Assembly (NCBI GenBank): GCA_964627525.1
Contig: CAZVIA010000001.1
Span: 72,384-136,383, forward strand
Length of the DNA stretch: 64,000 bases
Origin: an uncultured Gammaproteobacteria bacterium
GTDB taxonomy: Bacteria; Patescibacteriota; Patescibacteriia; Magasanikbacterales; JBBTQS01
Direction of reading: 5' to 3'
Shown here: one piece after another, positions 6,844-28,390 of the stretch
Position numbering within the stretch: the stretch's first letter is position 1
Layout of the letters: the number at the start of each line of letters is the position of its first letter
Notes under the pieces: generated by a model
Told to the model about the DNA's origin: nothing
Seen by the model: only the letters and a program-made list of their open reading frames with translations
Database searches by the model: none
Made by a program: the position numbers and the translations under genes

Positions 6844-7371
6844 ATGCCAAAAACAAGACAACAAAAAGAAAAAGATGTAGCAGATTTGACTGATGTTATC
6901 AAACAAAGCAAAGCTGCTGTTTTTGCATCATTTAAAAACATCACAGTTGGCGACGCGCAAACATTGCGTAGAAGCTGTCGTGAAGTAGATGTAAAATATT
7001 TAGTTGCAAAAAAGACTTTAATGAACCGTGCATTTAAAAATGCTGGTTATGATGATGTGGACACTTCTCCTTTTGAAGGTAACATTGGTGTTGCTTTTGG
7101 AATGGGTGATGAGGTTGCATCAGCAAAAACATTAGATACATTTGCCAAAGACCATGAGGGTTTCACTATTTTGGGTGGAATTTTAGAAGGACGTTATATT
7201 AAAGCTGATCAAGTGATTAGTTTGGCTAAATTGCCAAGTCGCGATGAATTACTTGCCAAGTTGGTAGGTTCATTAGCTGCTCCAATGTCTGGTTTTGTAA
7301 ATGTATTAGCAGGTGTACCGCGTAATTTTGTACAGGTTTTATCTGCAATAAAAGATGCTAAAGAAGCATAA
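6844..7371 (+). CDS. rplJ: 50S ribosomal protein L10
   Basis: L10-like sequence and size, directly upstream of rplL. Confidence 0.9.
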
Positions 7372-7406
7372 AGCATAAAAAGAAACATAAATTAATTTAT
7401 AAAGAT

Positions 7407-7823
7407 ATGAGTGAAGAAACAACACAAGAAGAAAAAAAGGACGTAGTTGTCCCAGAAAAATTCAAATCTCTTGTTGAAGAGGTTGAAAAAATGTCAGTAC
7501 TTGATTTAGCTGAACTTGTAAAAATTCTTGAAGACAAGTTTGGTGTTTCAGCTTCTGCTCCAGTTGCAATGATGGCTGGTCCAGCTGCTGGCGAAGCTAC
7601 TGTAGAAGAAAAAGATGAGTTTGATATTGAGCTTACAGGATCTGGAGAAAATAAGATCTCAGTTATTAAAGTTGTTCGTGAAATAACTGGTCTTGGTTTG
7701 AAAGATGCTAAAGACATGGTAGATGGCGCTCCTAAGGTAATTAAGGAAAAGGCTAAAAAAGAAGAAGCAGAAGAAATTAAGAAAAAGATTGAAGAAGCAG
7801 GTGGTACTTGCGATTTGAAATAA
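7407..7823 (+). CDS. rplL: 50S ribosomal protein L7/L12
   Basis: Ala/Glu-rich hinge and a C-terminal domain with [20 protein letters not shown]. Confidence 0.95.
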
Positions 7824-7826
7824 AGT

Positions 7827-7926
7827 AAAAAAAGTATTACATTCCGTACCTATCTCGCACATGTCTCCAACATGCGCTTGACCCTCTATGGGCAAACAGT
7901 GCTAAGATGTAATACTTTTTTATTTT
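7827..7926. terminator. bidirectional terminator: A-run, 14-bp stem (gtattacat/atgtaatac), T-run, enclosing a 65-nt structured loop
   Basis: aaaaaaagtattacat ... atgtaatacttttttt lies between convergent rplL and the 763-aa gene. The loop contains its own hairpin gcacatg..catgcgc. Confidence 0.5.
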
Positions 7927-7934
7927 TTATAAAA

Positions 7935-10226
7935 TTATTCCTCCAAATGTCCCAGCACAAATTGTTTAACTTGTGTGCCATCTAAAATAAAACCCTGGCC
8001 TTTCACTTCGTCTATTGCAAAGTCCAATAAGTTTTCAGAATTATCAAACAAATATTGCACTTTTAATTTTCCAGTTTCTTTTTCAAAAACAACCACACGC
8101 TTATTCAGAGGATCAAAAACATACAACCAATCAGATTCAAATTTTGTCCAAACAGAAGTAGGGGATTCAAGAACAGGATCTGCACTACTTAATTTAAATT
8201 CTTGCAATTCGCCACGACTAAATGATTTTACATCACCATTGCCCATTAAAACCCAAGCCAAGCCATCAATACTCACACTAACTGCTTCAGATAAATCAAT
8301 TGCACCTTTAATCCAAGTAGTGCCAGAATCAAATCCTTCTTGATGCCTACCATGTTTGAAAATTTGATTTTGTTCAGGTACTAAAGAATACAAACGATCA
8401 TTATAAACCACGAGATCTTTAATTAAACCACCACCAGGAATATCAACTTGCATCAACTTATCTTCACCAGCGTATTTCCATTGCACGGCATTTTCATTTC
8501 CAACAAAGAAAATATGATCTTCATCAGTTGCAACACCAATATATTTTGCATCACTAAAACCACTAGAACTAGATTCAATATTTTCTTCAAATTTTGTAAC
8601 TTGAGTACCTCGCTCCAAAGCAACTAATTTTTTCAAATCATCAGACACAACAACTAACCCAGTAGAAACAATTAAATTATTTGCTTCATTCAAACCTTGG
8701 TCCACAGCATCTAACAAAATGGTAACTCCTGGATGTTCAGCATGTCTTAATTTTTCACGCATTTCATCAACTTTTTTTGTAAGACGTTCAGTTGTATTTT
8801 TTTGTTCACGAGATTTTGTTGGCAAAGCATTAAGTTTTTCAACAACATCCATAATCATTTCGCGCGCATGATCTTCTTCATTAAAAATCAAATTAGATTC
8901 TGCAGCGCTTAATTTAGATTCAATGCTAGTAATTTGCGCTTGATAAGCAGCTTCTTTGATTTGAGTTGTTTTGCGGTGTTTTAATACACCAATACTAATA
9001 ATAAAAATCACAATCAAAACAAGTCCAACAATAAATGCTATTTTACTAATGGTTGATAGTTTTTCAAACCACTTGCGCGCGCGTTCATAATTATCTGTAG
9101 TGATTTTTTTCCAATGATCGGTAAATTCTTTTCTACGATCACCTTGGTTTGTAATAAGAAAATATAAGGTTTGCAAAACTGTGACACAAGCAATTGCAGT
9201 CCATTTAATTCCACGCCAAATTAGATTTGCTCCAAGTAATCCATATTTTGTTCCGTGTCGGGCACTTGTATGCAAAATACCTTTTACTTGTTTGCGCCTA
9301 TCAGTTTGTTTTGGTTTTTCGTCATGATTATTTTCTCTATTGTCATCTTCATGTTCGCGACTACTTTTTTTACCAGCTTTTTCTTCAAACCGTGATTTAA
9401 GTTTTCCAAACAAACTAGGAGCAAGAATTTCTTCAGTATCTTGTTGTGTTTTTAAAAACTCTGTCAAAGATTCGTGTGGTTTTTTTCCGTCAGATTTATT
9501 TTTTGAAGAAACAAGTTCTTCGTTATCATAATCATGTTTTAATCTTTCAATTAAAATTCCACCAAAAGAAAATCCATTGTCAACATCTTCCAAAATATTT
9601 TGGAAATGCTTAATAGATTTTTTTGGCAACTTGTTTGCAAGAATTTGTTCGATTTGTTTTTTAGAAAAACCATCATCCACATGAGGTGAACAATATAGCA
9701 CGCGATCGTTTTCACCAATTCCTCCAGACACAATGTTTGAAAACATTTGTGAGTCATTATCTTGCTCACGATTTTCTTCAACTATGTCAATTGTTTTGTA
9801 AGAGCCATGCTTGTCTTGATATGCAACACAACCAATTGGATCGCCACGCATTGCAAAACACAAATCTTCTTCATTTACATAACCAAGAATAATGTGGATT
9901 TCTTCTTCCTCAATTTGCATTGCTCGCAACAAAGTAGAGCTACGTTTATTAATCCGTTCTAATAATTTTTCAAAATGAGACCCAATGTCTCGACCTCTTA
10001 ATTCTTCATCGTAAAAACCAGTTTCCAGTTCTTCAATCCATTTATTGATTGTATCCACTGTTTTTACTGTGGCTTGGTTGGCTTCAGCAACCATAAATAG
10101 GTAGCCGCGCCGATATTCCTCTTCATTTGCAGGTTCTGTTATGTGTAAAATTACCTGCGAACTGTCTGCATCGCGGCCTTCTACGAAAAATTCGTGTATA
10201 TTGATTTTTGAGTTTAATGCTCTCAT
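7935..10226 (-). CDS. large hypothetical membrane protein: N-terminal cytoplasmic domain, one TM, coiled coil, C-terminal beta-rich extracytoplasmic domain
   Basis: TM helix IAFIVGLVLIVIFIISIGVL at mid-protein. No confident family motif. Confidence 0.5.
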   Translation of the reverse strand: MRALNSKINIHEFFVEGRDADSSQVILHITEPANEEEYRRGYLFMVAEANQATVKTVDTINKWIEELETGFYDEELRGRDIGSHFEKLLERINKRSSTLLRAMQIEEEEIHIILGYVNEEDLCFAMRGDPIGCVAYQDKHGSYKTIDIVEENREQDNDSQMFSNIVSGGIGENDRVLYCSPHVDDGFSKKQIEQILANKLPKKSIKHFQNILEDVDNGFSFGGILIERLKHDYDNEELVSSKNKSDGKKPHESLTEFLKTQQDTEEILAPSLFGKLKSRFEEKAGKKSSREHEDDNRENNHDEKPKQTDRRKQVKGILHTSARHGTKYGLLGANLIWRGIKWTAIACVTVLQTLYFLITNQGDRRKEFTDHWKKITTDNYERARKWFEKLSTISKIAFIVGLVLIVIFIISIGVLKHRKTTQIKEAAYQAQITSIESKLSAAESNLIFNEEDHAREMIMDVVEKLNALPTKSREQKNTTERLTKKVDEMREKLRHAEHPGVTILLDAVDQGLNEANNLIVSTGLVVVSDDLKKLVALERGTQVTKFEENIESSSSGFSDAKYIGVATDEDHIFFVGNENAVQWKYAGEDKLMQVDIPGGGLIKDLVVYNDRLYSLVPEQNQIFKHGRHQEGFDSGTTWIKGAIDLSEAVSVSIDGLAWVLMGNGDVKSFSRGELQEFKLSSADPVLESPTSVWTKFESDWLYVFDPLNKRVVVFEKETGKLKVQYLFDNSENLLDFAIDEVKGQGFILDGTQVKQFVLGHLEE

Positions 10227-23329: not shown

Positions 23330-24232
23330 ATGCTGTACGGATATTTACCGATTTTAATAATTTTAATTGGGCTGGCAATTGCAGTTGTAATTATTATACG
23401 AAAGTTTCCTCAATTAAAAGTTTTGGATGTAGATGAGTTGCCAGAAGAACAAGATCGTAAAAAGAAAGATAAGTTGTTAGAGGAAAAATTTTATCGCGCA
23501 ATGAGTCCTTTGAAAAAACGTGGGATTGGTTGGGGTAGAAAGTTTTTGGAAAGAATGAAAGTTTTTCAAGAAGATTTTCGTGGTTATGTAAATAGGATTG
23601 CTGATTCATATCGCGAAGAGCATGGAAAAGTTCACAAGAAAAAACAAAAATCCAAAACTCCGGCAGAGCGCAAAAAAGAAGTTGCGCGTTTGGTGGAAGA
23701 AGCAGATGAATTGAGACATAAAAATGATTTAGTGCATGCTGAAGAAAAATATATTGCTGCGATTGGAATTGCGCCGCGAAGTATTAGTGCTTATAAAGGT
23801 TTGGGAAAAGTTTATTTTGCACAAGAAAAGTTTGATGATGCGCGTGAGACTTTTACTTATTTGGCAAAGTTGGCAAAGAGTGATGATATTGTTCATGCGT
23901 TTTTGGGAAGGATTGCTAAGGCAAAAGAAAAATGGGAAGAATCTGTGAAGCATTATAAGCGTGCGATTGAATTAAATGGAGGTTTGGCTAAGCGACATAT
24001 TGATATTGCAAAAGTTTATATTGAGTTAGATAAAAAACGTGAGGCTGTTGCAGCGTATCGCAGAGCGTTTGAGTTAGAGCCAAAAAATCCAGCGGTTTTA
24101 GATCAGATAATTGAGTTTGCTTTTGATGTAAAAGATAAGGTTTTGGCAAGGGAAATGATTAAGCGTTTGCAAGAAGTAAATCCAGAAAATAAAAAGTTAG
24201 AGCAGTTTAAAAAAGATTTGCAAAAGTTGTGA
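23330..24232 (+). CDS. TPR-repeat protein with N-terminal TM helix
   Basis: N-terminal hydrophobic helix, then repeated A..Y..A TPR-like helices. Confidence 0.55.
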   Translation: MLYGYLPILIILIGLAIAVVIIIRKFPQLKVLDVDELPEEQDRKKKDKLLEEKFYRAMSPLKKRGIGWGRKFLERMKVFQEDFRGYVNRIADSYREEHGKVHKKKQKSKTPAERKKEVARLVEEADELRHKNDLVHAEEKYIAAIGIAPRSISAYKGLGKVYFAQEKFDDARETFTYLAKLAKSDDIVHAFLGRIAKAKEKWEESVKHYKRAIELNGGLAKRHIDIAKVYIELDKKREAVAAYRRAFELEPKNPAVLDQIIEFAFDVKDKVLAREMIKRLQEVNPENKKLEQFKKDLQKL

Positions 24233-24255
24233 GGAGGGCTAAAAAGGTGGGCTAA

Positions 24256-24329
24256 GCCACAGTAGCTCAGTTGGTTAGAGCGCATCCATGGTAAGGATGA
24301 GGTCTCCGGTTCGATTCCGGACTGTGGCT
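24256..24329 (+). tRNA. tRNA-Thr (anticodon GGT)
   Basis: Cloverleaf by hand: acceptor gccacag/ctgtggc, D arm gctc..gagc, anticodon stem catcc/ggatg with loop atGGTaa, T arm tccgg ttcgatt ccgga. Confidence 0.85.
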
Positions 24330-24342
24330 CATAAACAATATA

Positions 24343-24371
24343 TTGATAAAATCCAAAAAATCTGCTAAAAT
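24343..24371 (+). promoter_or_regulatory. promoter TTGATA-N17-TAAAAT for the Fic toxin-antitoxin pair
   Basis: ttgata at 24343, a 17-nt spacer, taaaat at 24366. The SD aaaggtga lies 5 nt before the antitoxin ATG. Confidence 0.5.
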
Positions 24372-24380
24372 AAAGGTGAT

Positions 24381-24527
24381 ATGAGAGAAAAAATTGCCAA
24401 AAAAAAAGAACTAAAAAAAGCAGTATCTAGATCTTCAAAACTCGAAGGTCTTAGTTGGAATAGTGCAAAAAAAAATACTTCTATCATCCGCAAACTAAAA
24501 AAATATGGCAGAGCCTTCTCGATATAG
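24381..24527 (+). CDS. small Fic antitoxin (FicA/VbhA-like) with SxxxEG inhibitory motif
   Basis: 48-aa ORF absent from the ORF track (under 60 aa): MREKIAKKKELKKAVSRSSKLEGLSWNSAKKNTSIIRKLKKYGRAFSI. SSKLEG fits [ST]xxxE[GN]. Overlaps the fic start by 23 nt and has a good SD. Confidence 0.6.
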   Translation: MREKIAKKKELKKAVSRSSKLEGLSWNSAKKNTSIIRKLKKYGRAFSI

Positions 24528-25116
24528 TGTTAGTGATAAGGATGCAGGTGTTCAAAATGGTATTTTAAAAAATAAACTCAAGATTAAAGACCAGAAAATT
24601 TTGGATGATGCTGAAACCATACTTCTTGGTGACACATATACGCATTTTTTTGAATTGCTTGAAAAAGGTGAAATTAAATTTGATTTTTCTCTGATATTTG
24701 AGATACATAGATTTTTTTTAAACACTTTGTATTCTTGGGCTGGAAAGACTAGGACTATTGATATTTCAAAAGACGGAATGTTTTTTGCCTCGGTAAAATA
24801 TATTGATAGTTCGCTTAAAGATTTTGAACAGATTTTGAGAAAAAATATTCCAGTTGAAAAAGATACAAAGAGAAGGTTCGCGCAAAAACTTGCTGTTATT
24901 CACAATGAATACAATGCTATTCATCCATTTCGTGAAGGTAATGGGAGAGCTGTTCGTCTTTTTCTTGATTTGCTTGTAGTAAAATTTGGATACAATCCAA
25001 TTGATTGGAGTAAAAAACAAAAAAATAAGTATATCGAAGCATGTGTCAAAGGCATGTCACAAAAAAATAAACAGATGGAGCAGATAATTTATTTTGGTTT
25101 GTATAAGCAAAAGTAA
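24505..25116 (+). CDS. fic: Fic-domain protein (class I Fic toxin, AMPylation/adenylyltransferase family)
   Basis: HPFREGNGRAVRLF matches the Fic motif HxFx(D/E)GNGRxxR. 203 aa. Confidence 0.85.
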   Translation: MAEPSRYSVSDKDAGVQNGILKNKLKIKDQKILDDAETILLGDTYTHFFELLEKGEIKFDFSLIFEIHRFFLNTLYSWAGKTRTIDISKDGMFFASVKYIDSSLKDFEQILRKNIPVEKDTKRRFAQKLAVIHNEYNAIHPFREGNGRAVRLFLDLLVVKFGYNPIDWSKKQKNKYIEACVKGMSQKNKQMEQIIYFGLYKQK

Positions 25117-25207
25117 ATGACATGGTTTTGTCCTGTGGGTAATATAGATCTGGACAAATTCTGTCAGATATAATATCATTATTTCAGTTAATTTAGTTTT
25201 ATTATTA

Positions 25208-25291
25208 GGGTCGGTAGCGAAGTGGTTAAACGCATCAGACTGTAAATCTGACGGCCTCGTGCCTCCGGGGGTTCGAATCCCTCCCGGCCCA
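25208..25291 (+). tRNA. tRNA-Tyr (anticodon GTA), long variable arm
   Basis: Acceptor gggtcgg/ccggccc, anticodon stem tcaga/tctga with loop ctGTAaa, long variable arm, T arm ttcgaat. Confidence 0.8.
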
Positions 25292-25294
25292 CAA

Positions 25295-25388
25295 AACTTA
25301 AAAAACATATTATTTGTTCCTATCCCGTGCTAATTCTAGCACTCGACCCTCAACGGGTAAGTGTCACAAATAATATGTTTTTTAAGTT
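25295..25388. mobile_element. 94-bp MITE-like element or integration scar: perfect 23-bp terminal inverted repeats around a 48-nt structured core
   Basis: aacttaaaaaacatattatttgt (25295-25317) and acaaataatatgttttttaagtt (25366-25388) are exact reverse complements. The core contains nested hairpins cccgt..acggg and gtgcta..tagcac. Sits 3 nt after tRNA-Tyr. Confidence 0.45.
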
Positions 25389-25503
25389 AATAAATTAATT
25401 TACAACAATTTTACTAACTAAAACTTGTTTTTTTTACATTAAGTGTATACTTCGTATCAACTGGCGTGAATGGACACGTCAAAAAAGCAAAGGAGGGTTA
25501 GCC

Positions 25504-26049
25504 ATGAAAAAGGCAACCTACTTGTTGTTGGCAGGGCTAGCGCTCGTTGCGCTGGTCTGGCCAATCTTGGCAACAGCATCTCAACCGTCAGACGACGCGG
25601 GAGAGCAGTTGTGCCAGGTTTGGCCGGGGATTTCGTTCTGCATGTCAGCACCCGACGAGGTCGTGGTTGCTGGCAGTGATCTGTTGTTCACGTTCGATGA
25701 TCAGAGCGCGCCGCAGATCCTGATGCAGGACAAGAACGGGTTGTTCATGGTGACGGGGCTGATCCAGGTTCCGTATGACCAGTTGGCAGTGCTGATGAGC
25801 CAGAAACTCGTCGGACTGCTGATCTGGGAAGATGGGCAAGGTCGTATTCTCATGCAGGCGCCCGACGGGCTCTTCGTGTGGTGCGACAAAGCAGAAGGCA
25901 CGTGCTTTATCATGGAGAAGAAGCCGGCGGAGAGCGGCGACTTCATCATGCAGAGCAGCTTGATCATCGGACCGTGTACTGGGAATCTCATTCTGGTGAA
26001 CAAGGCTTGGGGTGGTCCGATCGTGCCAATCAACATCGTGTTCTGTTAG
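25504..26049 (+). CDS. secreted hypothetical protein, horizontally acquired (about 57% GC against a 33% GC genome)
   Basis: Signal peptide MKKATYLLLAGLALVALVWPILATA. SD aaaggaggg precedes the ATG. Strongly GC-rich codon usage unlike neighbours. Confidence 0.7.
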   Translation: MKKATYLLLAGLALVALVWPILATASQPSDDAGEQLCQVWPGISFCMSAPDEVVVAGSDLLFTFDDQSAPQILMQDKNGLFMVTGLIQVPYDQLAVLMSQKLVGLLIWEDGQGRILMQAPDGLFVWCDKAEGTCFIMEKKPAESGDFIMQSSLIIGPCTGNLILVNKAWGGPIVPINIVFC

Positions 26050-26075
26050 TACTGCACAGACAGTGCGAAGCAGAA

Positions 26076-26126
26076 AAACACGCGAGAGCGTCTAGGTAAC
26101 ACTAGGCGCTTCTCTGTTTTTTTAAA
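26076..26126 (+). terminator. intrinsic terminator
   Basis: GC hairpin cgcgagagcg...cgcttctctg followed by T7. Confidence 0.5.
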
Positions 26127-26194: not shown

Positions 26195-26440
26195 ATGAAT
26201 GTGATTTTAAAAGCTACTACAAAAGGGCAAATAACTTTGCCTGCAAAATGGAGAAGGTCTTTTAATACAGATCAGTATCTTGTAACAAGTAAGGGTGGAA
26301 TGCTTGAGGTGCGCCCTGTTGATCTTAAATCAGCTATAAATACAAAAGATGAATATACTGTTTTTGATGCAATCCGAGATAATAAAGGTAAAGGTATAAA
26401 AGCAAAAGATCTTGTAAAAGTTTTGAAAAAAATGACTTAA
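26195..26440 (+). CDS. AbrB/MazE/SpoVT-family swapped-hairpin DNA-binding protein (antitoxin-like), AT-rich
   Basis: KGQITLPAKWRRSFN is typical of AbrB/MazE N-termini. 81 aa. No cognate toxin adjacent. Confidence 0.5.
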   Translation: MNVILKATTKGQITLPAKWRRSFNTDQYLVTSKGGMLEVRPVDLKSAINTKDEYTVFDAIRDNKGKGIKAKDLVKVLKKMT

Positions 26441-26608
26441 GCTTTTATGGATCAAATACAAAAATTGTTTAAGATAGTATAAAATTAAGAAATGAGCAGA
26501 TTTATAAATAATATTTTTTAAATTAAAAAAGACCTCACTTCGTGTGGGTCTTTTTTGTTGTTTAAGTTTCTGACTCATCTTGAGTCAGTCGGCCGAAATG
26601 GCCTGTCC

Positions 26609-27226
26609 TTAGTGGATCGCCTCGTTGTCGTCCATGCCAGCTCCTGTCACGTTGCAGTGCACCCGAATGGCGCTCCGCGGAATCGTGACACAGAACTCAC
26701 CGTGTTCTGAGGAGGTCGAAACCTCTTCAGTGGTGGTCAACACAATGTGCCTTCCCACCTCACAGTTCGCCTTGACAAGGACTTGCTCGATCCACTCCAC
26801 CAGGTTGTCCGTGGCAGTACGCTCACCCAAGTCCATTGCTTCGACCTCGGGCATGCACTGTTCGAACACCACGATCGTCGGGATGCGCACCGTCTTGGTG
26901 AATATCACGCCGCCACTCTTCTTCGAGCTTGGGGTGGGCTTGGATTCCTTGGTCGTCAGCGTCTTGCCAGCAACCCAGGTTTCCTCCTTGTCTTGGATCT
27001 CCACCTCGCTGCCGGTTTGGCGAGCGAAGCGCAGAACCTCCAGGAGGGTGGGATCGCCGCGCCCGACGTCCACGGTCTCCTCGCCAGCGACCGGAGTCGC
27101 TGTCCGAGTCGGACCGCCTGCAGGTTGAGCTGTCGCCGTCGTGGCACAGCCTGGGTTGAGGGCGATAATAGCTATGACCACCGCAAGGGCGATCGAAGAA
27201 AAAATCAGTTGCACTATTGCCTTCAT
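26609..27226 (-). CDS. hypothetical lipoprotein, horizontally acquired (about 58% GC)
   Basis: Start MKAIVQLIFSSIALAVVIAIIALNPGCATT (signal plus lipobox-like NPGC). It is preceded by SD caaggaga and by a perfect TTGACA-N17-TATAGT promoter. Confidence 0.65.
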   Translation of the reverse strand: MKAIVQLIFSSIALAVVIAIIALNPGCATTATAQPAGGPTRTATPVAGEETVDVGRGDPTLLEVLRFARQTGSEVEIQDKEETWVAGKTLTTKESKPTPSSKKSGGVIFTKTVRIPTIVVFEQCMPEVEAMDLGERTATDNLVEWIEQVLVKANCEVGRHIVLTTTEEVSTSSEHGEFCVTIPRSAIRVHCNVTGAGMDDNEAIH

Positions 27227-27350
27227 TGAAGGGTGTCTCCTTGTGGTTTGATTTACGGTCGTTTGTGCAGTTTTAGAGAACCCTACTGATGATCTGTTCT
27301 GCGTCAGCTCATCATGCAGTACTCTCCAAAAAGTACATATTAAACAGATA

Positions 27351-27379
27351 ACTATAGCATATTTTAGCGATTTTGTCAA
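27351..27379 (-). promoter_or_regulatory. sigma70 promoter TTGACA-N17-TATAGT driving the GC-rich lipoprotein gene
   Basis: Reverse complement of 27351-27379 reads ttgaca aaatcgctaaaatatgc tatagt. Near-identical (26/29) to the promoter at 60899-60927. Confidence 0.6.
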
Positions 27380-27456
27380 CCCTCACTGGCTTTGCCAGCT
27401 CGGGTTGTCAACTGCGTCTTTAATTTTTGCCTAAAATAAGCTAAAATCATAACACA

Positions 27457-27498: not shown

Positions 27499-27572
27499 GC
27501 CACCTTAGCTCAGCTGGTTAGAGCGACGGTTTTGTAAACCGTAGGTCCAGGGTTCGATTCCCTGAGGTGGCT
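27499..27572 (+). tRNA. tRNA-Thr (anticodon TGT)
   Basis: Acceptor gccacct/aggtggc, D arm gctc..gagc, anticodon stem acggt/accgt with loop ttTGTaa, T arm cagggttcgattccctg. Confidence 0.8.
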
Positions 27573-27596
27573 CTGAAAAAATTGAATAAAAATTTT

Positions 27597-28231: not shown

Positions 28232-28304
28232 GGGCCCATAGTTTCAATGGCTAAAATGTCGGTCTCCAAAACCGAAGTTCTTGGTTCGAGTCCAAGTGGG
28301 CCTG
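28232..28304 (+). tRNA. tRNA-Trp (anticodon CCA); genomic CCA follows the discriminator
   Basis: Acceptor gggccca/tgggcct, anticodon stem tcggt/accga with loop ctCCAaa, T arm cttgg ttcgagt ccaag. Confidence 0.8.
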
Positions 28305-28390
28305 CCAAAAAAACAAAGTCCTGTTGTACTTTGACGCGTTATGCGTCTAGTAACAACAGGACTTAGTCTGTTTTTGAGGGGGGTAGAATC

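Follow-up and report, generated by a model that had tools for sequence, protein, structure and literature searches.

Proteobacterial FicTA modules of class I have been characterised in detail. In class I Fic systems the inhibitory helix with the motif [S/T]xxxE[G/N] is supplied by the antitoxin (PMC5033356); in EcFicA the motif reads SRRLEG, is placed at the C-terminal end of helix 1, and locks onto the second motif arginine through S24 and E28 (PMC5033356). AMPylation of GyrB and ParE by Fic toxins has been described (PMC7479194). The DNA analysed here is a stretch of 64,000 nucleotides (nt) from a Patescibacteria (Candidate Phyla Radiation, CPR) bacterium (contig CAZVIA010000001.1, positions 72,384 to 136,383), referred to below as the window. 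It carries a gene for a 203-amino-acid (aa) Fic protein whose start is overlapped by an upstream gene for a 48-aa peptide, and this locus is very likely an ordinary two-gene class I FicTA type II toxin-antitoxin (TA) module. The features of the locus, numbered from the first nucleotide of the window, are as follows.

24256-24330, + strand: tRNA-Thr (anticodon GGT), left neighbour of the cassette (ARAGORN; Rfam tRNA, 67.6 bits)
24343-24371, + strand: promoter-like site TTGATA-17 nt-TAAAAT, with TG ahead of the -10 (extended -10); 10/12 matches in a consensus scan
24373-24379, + strand: Shine-Dalgarno (SD)-like AAGGTGA, 1 nt short of the ATG (by reading the sequence)
24381-24527, + strand: putative ficA-like antitoxin gene, 48 aa, MREKIAKKKELKKAVSRSSKLEGLSWNSAKKNTSIIRKLKKYGRAFSI (list of open reading frames, ORFs)
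24432-24449, + strand: putative inhibitory motif SSKLEG ([S/T]xxxE[G/N]), residues 18-23
24505-24527, + strand: 23-nt out-of-frame overlap of the antitoxin 3' end (..GRAFSI, stop) with the Fic 5' end (MAEPSRY..)
24505-25116, + strand: ficT-like toxin gene, 203 aa, single Fic domain (ORF list; Pfam PF02661)
24922-24957, + strand: Fic active-site motif HPFREGNGRAVR, residues 140-151 (H140 catalytic, R148, R151)
25208-25292, + strand: tRNA-Tyr (anticodon GTA), right neighbour of the cassette (ARAGORN; Rfam)

A preliminary description of this DNA had proposed a Fic protein with a canonical motif, overlapped at its start by a 48-aa ORF with the sequence SSKLEG, the pair being placed between tRNA-Thr(GGT) and tRNA-Tyr. 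All of these elements were recovered: HPFREGNGRAVR was located within a protein that scores above the PF02661 cutoff, the two reading frames differ where they overlap, SSKLEG is encoded as an instance of [S/T]xxxE[G/N], and ARAGORN and Rfam agreed on the tRNA coordinates. The layout is that of an operon, with adjacent, co-oriented genes, the antitoxin first, the 23-nt overlap and a predicted promoter of its own. Beyond the peptide ORF and fic, no supported ORF was present on either strand of the interval from tRNA-Thr(GGT) to tRNA-Tyr. Four tRNA genes were detected in the window by ARAGORN and confirmed by Rfam, namely these two, Thr(TGT) at 27499-27573 and Trp at 28232-28307.

The Fic protein was assigned to Pfam Fic (PF02661) with 54.3 bits against a cutoff of 24 (E 2.6e-14). 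Its top sequence matches in the PDB were the VbhT Fic domain (5.7e-24) and then Pseudomonas Fic-1 (8wt0, 3.7e-19). A model was built with AlphaFold2 (AF2) from an alignment of 32 homologues (pLDDT 78, pTM 0.77) and compared with solved structures using Foldseek. Many solved Fic domains were matched at probability 1.00; the best match was VbhT (3shg_A; template modelling (TM) score 0.76, root-mean-square deviation 2.7 Å, 32% identity), followed by the Bartonella Beps, EcFicT and Fic-1 (TMt 0.75-0.78 for EcFicT and Fic-1; Fic-1 0.78), all of which were solved with trans-acting antitoxins or homologues of these. The full HxFx[DE]GNGRxxR was kept in 32/32 homologues, with H140, R148 and R151 invariant across the alignment, and by its sequence the window protein should be AMPylation-competent, having the signature HxFx[D/E]GNGRxxR.

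An intramolecular inhibitory helix in the Fic protein would have made the upstream peptide irrelevant. No internal [ST]xxxE[GN] was present in the window protein, and a single, non-conserved chance match was seen among the 32 homologues, so the family appears to have no inhibitory helix of its own. The canonical motif, the lack of an internal inhibitory motif and the rank of VbhT as best match in both sequence and fold uphold the earlier assignment to the class I toxins. Judged from these motifs, the protein is a predicted AMP-transferase with a complete catalytic motif, to which the inhibitory helix would be provided by a separate peptide. At E <= 1e-10, 1,339 homologues of the protein were found, and those that carry a name come from Patescibacteria (Yonathbacteria, Komeilibacteria, Uhrbacteria).

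Other assignments of the Fic protein were rejected. Membership of class II or class III was ruled out by the missing internal inhibitory motif. An orthologue of VbhT was ruled out by a score of 106 bits against the cutoff of 800 for NCBIfam NF045983, over profile positions 10-191 of 419 and with no BID domain, and the E. coli Fic equivalog (NCBIfam NF007672) by 84.1 bits against a cutoff of 181.

Conservation of the peptide gene was followed in the DNA of 17 loci whose Fic proteins are 54-71% identical to that of the window, together with further copies from the same organism. Although these loci are AT-rich, the small frame directly 5' of fic was open in 17/17, with 48-53 codons and the consensus KAVSxSSK[ILM]EG[LI]SFxRAxKNxxIIKKLKK[YH]GRAFS[IV]. 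The motif [S/T]xxxE[G/N] fell in a single alignment column in all 17, with S18, E22 and G23 invariant, and the objection that the ORF might not be conserved beside fic homologues is thereby answered. Identity of the peptides to the window copy was 48-69%, roughly equal to that of the Fic proteins. The antitoxin stop lay at +22 relative to the fic ATG, giving the 23-nt overlap, in 15/17 loci, the other two overlapping by 29 and 35 nt. A HMMER scan of 1.84 billion representative proteins gave a peptide family of 33 clusters at 50% identity (E <= 1e-3), and 46/49 of the collected family members kept the motif. By a rough estimate, a few percent of random 48-aa ORFs would hold one [ST]xxxE[GN], and the motif alone is little proof; the peptide goes beyond chance because the ORF and the motif column are conserved in all 17 loci.

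The 23 nt of overlap are dual coding, specifying both the invariant S5 R6 Y7 of the Fic N-terminus and the conserved antitoxin tail GRAFSI. A gammaproteobacterial relative (L001), whose genes overlap by just 8 nt, lacks the tail but retains MPEHSRY in Fic; for this reason selection acting on the N-terminus of Fic may account for part of the conservation of the tail. As a separate observation, the conserved N-terminal Tyr of Fic may, by analogy, recall the N-terminal 'DPY lock' of EcFicT (PMC5033356). Another member of the peptide family in the representative library (P0159, 103 aa) has a RelB/DinJ-type ribbon-helix-helix domain N-terminal to an SSxxEG module (TIGR02384 9.2e-10, under the cutoff), and by its domains is a putative DNA-binding version of the antitoxin with the architecture of a classical type II antitoxin.

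The structure of the window peptide was predicted with AF2 from an alignment of only two sequences (pLDDT 74). Helices were predicted at residues 2-17 and 26-42, with SSKLEG (18-23) at the C-terminal end of helix 1. The peptide has a net charge of +13; in its family the median charge is +10, the pI about 10.9 and the median length 51 aa.

For expression of the pair, the promoter at 24343-24371 is a prediction only, and no excess of promoter-like sites over shuffles was found in this region of the window. Most homologous loci likewise have an extended -10 element resembling TGnTA(A/T)AAT 5' of the peptide gene. In the subclade L089-L095 this element (TGcTATACT or TGcTATAAT) stands just 6-7 nt before the antitoxin ATG, and the sequences suggest that antitoxin mRNAs may be leaderless there. 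The preliminary description had credited the peptide gene with a good SD. AAGGTGA is indeed present; however, it ends 1 nt before the ATG, and elements of this type are not conserved in the homologous loci, several of which are apparently leaderless. It may also fall outside the transcript from the predicted promoter, since the -10 ends at 24371, only 9 nt before the antitoxin ATG. No SD-like purine run was seen before the fic ATG in any locus, and together with the conserved overlap this suggests that fic translation is probably coupled to that of the antitoxin.

For binding, inhibition geometry, translational coupling, toxicity and target we infer the following course. The two genes would be expressed from a shared promoter, and Fic would be made in coupling with, and at a lower level than, the antitoxin, because of the 23-nt overlap and the lack of a ribosome-binding site of its own. 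By analogy with the solved pairs, the two-helix basic peptide would dock on the Fic domain, with SSKLEG at the end of helix 1 reaching the active site. There the peptide, through Ser18 and Glu22, would contact R151, the second arginine of the Fic motif, and ATP would be forced into a non-productive pose, as in VbhA and EcFicA. On depletion of the antitoxin, free Fic would AMPylate the ATP-lid tyrosine of GyrB and/or ParE and growth would be arrested, as with VbhT, Fic-1 and FicY; the Fic-peptide complex may reverse the modification (PMC13327609). By analogy with VbhT/VbhA, Fic-1/AntF and FicY/AntY, the most likely mechanism is that the peptide blocks productive ATP binding and that free Fic AMPylates GyrB/ParE.

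Several results weigh against this account. As EcFicT demonstrates, class I pairs are not necessarily toxic (PMC5033356), and neither gyrB nor parE lies within the 64-kb window. PDB searches with the single peptide sequence and with its hidden Markov model (HMM) gave no significant similarity to VbhA or FicA. Pfam VbhA (PF18495) was matched neither by the window peptide nor by 16 relatives at E up to 10, while VbhA itself, as a positive control, was matched at 2.1e-12. Pfam YhfG/FicA (PF10832) was likewise not matched by the window peptide or those 16 relatives, while an Acinetobacter FicA-type antitoxin used as a control matched at 3e-15; one relative (P0142) reached only E = 0.041, over the motif. 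Searches of NCBIfam and PADLOC with the peptide gave no meaningful match. The fold search with the peptide model was empty, as expected of a 48-aa helical hairpin. Both the peptide (+13) and the Fic protein (net charge +9) are strongly basic, unlike the acidic VbhA.

VbhA/YhfG-type antitoxins for profile comparison were taken from the DNA 5' of distant fic genes, which came from a scan of a genome collection with patterns from the Fic alignment; the patterns were over-general, and only distant relatives of at most 46% identity were returned. Using hhalign, the peptide profile aligned with VbhA-like antitoxins over a stretch of 22 columns that includes the motif (P = 7e-4), and no score as high was obtained from 200 column shuffles. 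Against this, the hhalign probability was only 20-26% and the alignment was confined to the motif region, and the antitoxins compared had been picked by the motif, from which part of the score stems. The profile likeness is therefore suggestive only. The preliminary description had ranked the peptide with antitoxins such as VbhA and FicA. The inferred mechanism and the motif position, at the end of predicted helix 1, agree with that ranking; family membership does not, given the missing PF18495 and PF10832 matches where the controls match and the low hhalign probability. We conclude that the peptide probably acts like FicA/VbhA but forms a separate sequence family without a Pfam or NCBIfam model.

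One alternative concerns what the pair does with its chemistry. It may be a reversible regulator and not a poison with its antidote: free Fic would AMPylate, the complex would de-AMPylate through the charge of Glu22, and topoisomerase activity would be tuned. The position of Fic-1 as second-best sequence relative in the PDB (8wt0, 3.7e-19), its fold match (TMt 0.78) and the invariance of the equivalent Glu in the peptide family speak for such a role. The scattered, accessory distribution of the cassette is better suited to a mobile TA or defence module than to a housekeeping regulator. A regulator is thus possible but on the unlikely side, and it is compatible with the toxin-antitoxin explanation, not opposed to it.

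The genomic setting was examined with 16 homologous cassettes and with syntenic relatives of the window. The 16 cassettes had unrelated neighbours, and 0/16 had a tRNA gene within about 3 kb. The syntenic relatives were found through orthologues (53-64% identical) of the TPR gene just upstream; TIM-TPR was always shared, and in the longer contigs the shared synteny extended back to holB. In these relatives tRNA-Thr(GGT) is followed by other cargo. In L105 (TPR orthologue 59% identical; 7113-8275) it is followed by a zeta-toxin gene (Pfam 4.7e-40), a 59-aa ORF and then a repeat of the tRNA 3' half (8200-8220 and 8251-8272), broken by about 30 nt; this repeat is att-like, with no integrase, and short copies of the tRNA 5' end (gccatcatagc) are also found ahead of the tRNA. 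In L107 (6988-7548) a terminator-like hairpin and then a G+C-rich, foreign-looking MerC gene follow. In L109 (7017-8251) tRNA-Thr(GGT) is split directly after the anticodon into a 5' part (7170-7205) and a 3' part (7403-7442) by an insert of 197 nt, with an additional copy of the 5' half at 7017-7057 and a tyrosine integrase gene from 7469 (Pfam 2.6e-23). Neither ARAGORN nor Rfam detected a tRNA or group I intron at the split site, where a nested insertion, or else an intron of unknown type, may be present.

Because homologues stand in unrelated contexts and the relatives carry other cargo after tRNA-Thr(GGT), the ficTA cassette is accessory. The 3' flank of tRNA-Thr(GGT) looks like an integration or cargo hotspot in this lineage. 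An empty-site relative was not found: the contig of the nearest TPR orthologue (64% identity) stops 41 bp past the gene, and the others stop or carry cargo. Contigs L107, L109, L110 and L111 tend to stop a few hundred bases or less past the TPR gene or tRNA-Thr(GGT), which fits strain-level heterogeneity at the locus. In the homologous locus of L099 (1-3612) and L100, the ficTA cassette was observed about 1.5 kb 3' of a gene for a second Fic protein (360 aa, Fic_N+Fic, class II-type) and beside a phage-type integrase, with two Fic systems thus in one island.

The preliminary description had further held that tRNA-Thr(GGT) and tRNA-Tyr are normally adjacent and that the cassette was inserted into a tRNA array. 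The former claim was not supported for this lineage: other cargo follows tRNA-Thr(GGT) in the nearest relatives retrieved, and L105, the sole relative with enough downstream sequence, has no tRNA-Tyr in about 5.7 kb; no tRNA-Tyr-like sequence was found in L105, L107 or L109, although the contigs of L107 and L109 stop about 0.7-0.8 kb past the tRNA. The latter was partly retained: the 3' flank of the tRNA does take varied cargo, but no insertion scar was seen in the window. No repeat of the tRNA-Thr 3' end, allowing up to 3 mismatches, occurred anywhere in the window, there were no direct or inverted repeats around the cassette, local alignment of flank against flank was not above shuffles, and no integrase lay between tRNA-Thr(GGT) and tRNA-Tyr. 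The marks of a tRNA-targeted integrative island (integrase, tRNA 3'-end repeats) are thus missing from the window, while the relatives do show such marks.

These absences leave room for a second alternative, in which the cassette was not inserted between formerly adjacent tRNAs and arose by local rearrangement or older vertical inheritance, its tRNA neighbours being incidental. Such a history would agree with the lack of direct repeats, tRNA-fragment duplicates and integrase around the cassette, with a cassette G+C content of 29-31%, near the window mean of 35%, and with the L105 tRNA-Thr(GGT), which has no tRNA-Tyr after it and leaves the premise of adjacency unsupported in this lineage. It is nevertheless rather unlikely. 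The three syntenic relatives carry three different cargos after tRNA-Thr(GGT), with a tRNA 3'-half repeat bounding one of them and a tyrosine integrase opening another, and homologous ficTA cassettes are found elsewhere in unrelated places.

A role in anti-phage abortive infection was also considered, in which a phage would deplete or displace the peptide and the freed Fic would shut the cell down. The Fic protein matched the PADLOC candidate defence family PDC-S04 along its full length (1.6e-54, profile positions 2-199 of 205) and PADLOC SoFic weakly (4.9e-10), and homologous cassettes occur in variable, island-like contexts beside integrases, restriction-type genes and other toxins. PDC-S04, however, is a computational candidate only, the sole literature test that was located saw no defence activity (bioRxiv 10.1101/2024.12.20.629700), and no link of the cassette to other defence genes is seen in the window. 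This role is accordingly regarded as unlikely.

The region around the cassette was also searched for transcriptional terminators. In 24100-25600, neither the gap from tRNA-Thr to the cassette nor that from fic to tRNA-Tyr held a terminator-like structure, and the latter spacer folded no better than shuffles (z = -0.7). Directly 3' of tRNA-Tyr, at 25295-25388, a perfect 23-bp inverted repeat was found, with a 48-nt loop holding two small G+C-rich hairpins. Its RNA fold (-35.6 kcal/mol) was well below that of shuffles (z = -9.3), and it had no Rfam match. This hairpin may terminate a transcription unit made up of tRNA-Thr, ficAT and tRNA-Tyr; alternatively, it may be a mobile or recombination element of small size. 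With no terminator until this hairpin, the pair could be freed from a tRNA precursor by tRNA-processing enzymes and so track growth-rate transcription. The locus would then be a growth-coupled, reversible AMPylation switch within a tRNA transcription unit and not a classical addiction module, with a two-helix peptide, unusually basic, that may bind nucleic acid and turn Fic into a deAMPylase; if true, the peptides would form an antitoxin family of their own, regulated by a different logic, in symbionts with reduced genomes. Such a switch is considered quite improbable.

That the 48-aa ORF is no functional inhibitor at all, being a chance ORF or a leader peptide that solely regulates fic translation, is very hard to believe: the peptide has no database family match and its final 7 codons overlap fic, where conservation may be a by-product of the Fic N-terminus, but amino-acid conservation (48-69% identity, close to that of Fic) extends over the 41 codons outside the overlap, with S18, E22 and G23 invariant, the frame is open in every one of the 17 AT-rich loci, the family persists as 33 clusters, and a RelB/DinJ fusion (P0159) exists.

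Further features were noted between tRNA-Tyr and tRNA-Thr(TGT) and beyond. Two G+C-rich islands, 25400-26100 (56%) and 26600-27400 (62%), stand out from a genome of about 35% G+C. Each holds an ORF with a hydrophobic N-terminus (25504-26049, + strand, 181 aa; 26609-27226, - strand, 205 aa as called), and neither ORF had a Pfam or NCBIfam match. The islands are present in several independent assemblies and are therefore not chimeras; they look like foreign DNA. Between them an AT-rich ORF of 81 aa (26195-26440, + strand) has an N-terminus, KGQITLPAKWRR, resembling AbrB/MazE/SpoVT, with matches to TIGR01439 (2.9e-6) and Pfam MazE_antitoxin (3.6e-4) that are both slightly under cutoff. The resemblance points to a possible second antitoxin-like gene, which stands alone; a partner toxin was not seen. 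At 28307-28373, directly 3' of tRNA-Trp and before a convergent 644-aa gene, an inverted repeat of 31 nt, imperfect at 77% complementarity and with a spacer of 5 nt, probably terminates transcription in both directions; weak Rfam mir-148 matches at this site were taken as chance.

A literature search of limited scope found no description of FicTA modules in Patescibacteria/CPR. The present locus extends class I FicTA to a large Patescibacteria family (1,339 Fic homologues), with an antitoxin that represents a third sequence family, short, basic, two-helix and undetected by Pfam VbhA or YhfG; the biology of the module is otherwise expected. The peptide gene is sometimes overlooked by gene callers. 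Because the peptide is missed or has no model, such fic genes are annotated as an orphan 'Fic family protein' or as the single-gene defence candidate PDC-S04, and a model for the peptide family would correct those annotations.

Among known systems, the pair resembles VbhT(FIC)/VbhA of Bartonella schoenbuchensis (3SHG, 3ZC7) in toxin sequence (5.7e-24), in fold (TM 0.76), in the complete HxFx[DE]GNGRxxR and in an antitoxin encoded upstream; in VbhA the first helix ends with S-x-x-L-E-G-L. Unlike the window Fic, VbhT has an additional C-terminal BID secretion domain, and VbhA is 62 aa, acidic (net -6) and a member of PF18495, whereas the window peptide is a two-helix protein of 48 aa with a charge of +13 and no PF18495 match. 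VbhA-like proteins are mostly acidic. With EcFicT/EcFicA (YhfG) of E. coli and Fic-1/AntF of Pseudomonas (5JFF, 8WT0) the pair shares a single-domain Fic protein of about 200 aa and a small antitoxin encoded immediately upstream, and in EcFicA and AntF too, helix 1 of the antitoxin has the SRRLEG-type segment at its C-terminal end (PMC5033356). The targets of Fic-1 are GyrB and ParE (PMC7479194). The window Fic is just 22-24% identical to EcFicT and Fic-1, and its peptide has no YhfG match; EcFicT is vertically inherited with a degenerate motif (PMC5033356), whereas the window Fic has a canonical motif and an accessory distribution. PDC-S04 was defined as a single-gene candidate without demonstrated function, whereas here fic is always paired with a small upstream gene. 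Class II and class III Fic proteins (FICD, EfFic, NmFic) have the same fold and the same logic of a glutamate helix that obstructs ATP, but, unlike in the window Fic, that helix lies within the Fic polypeptide.

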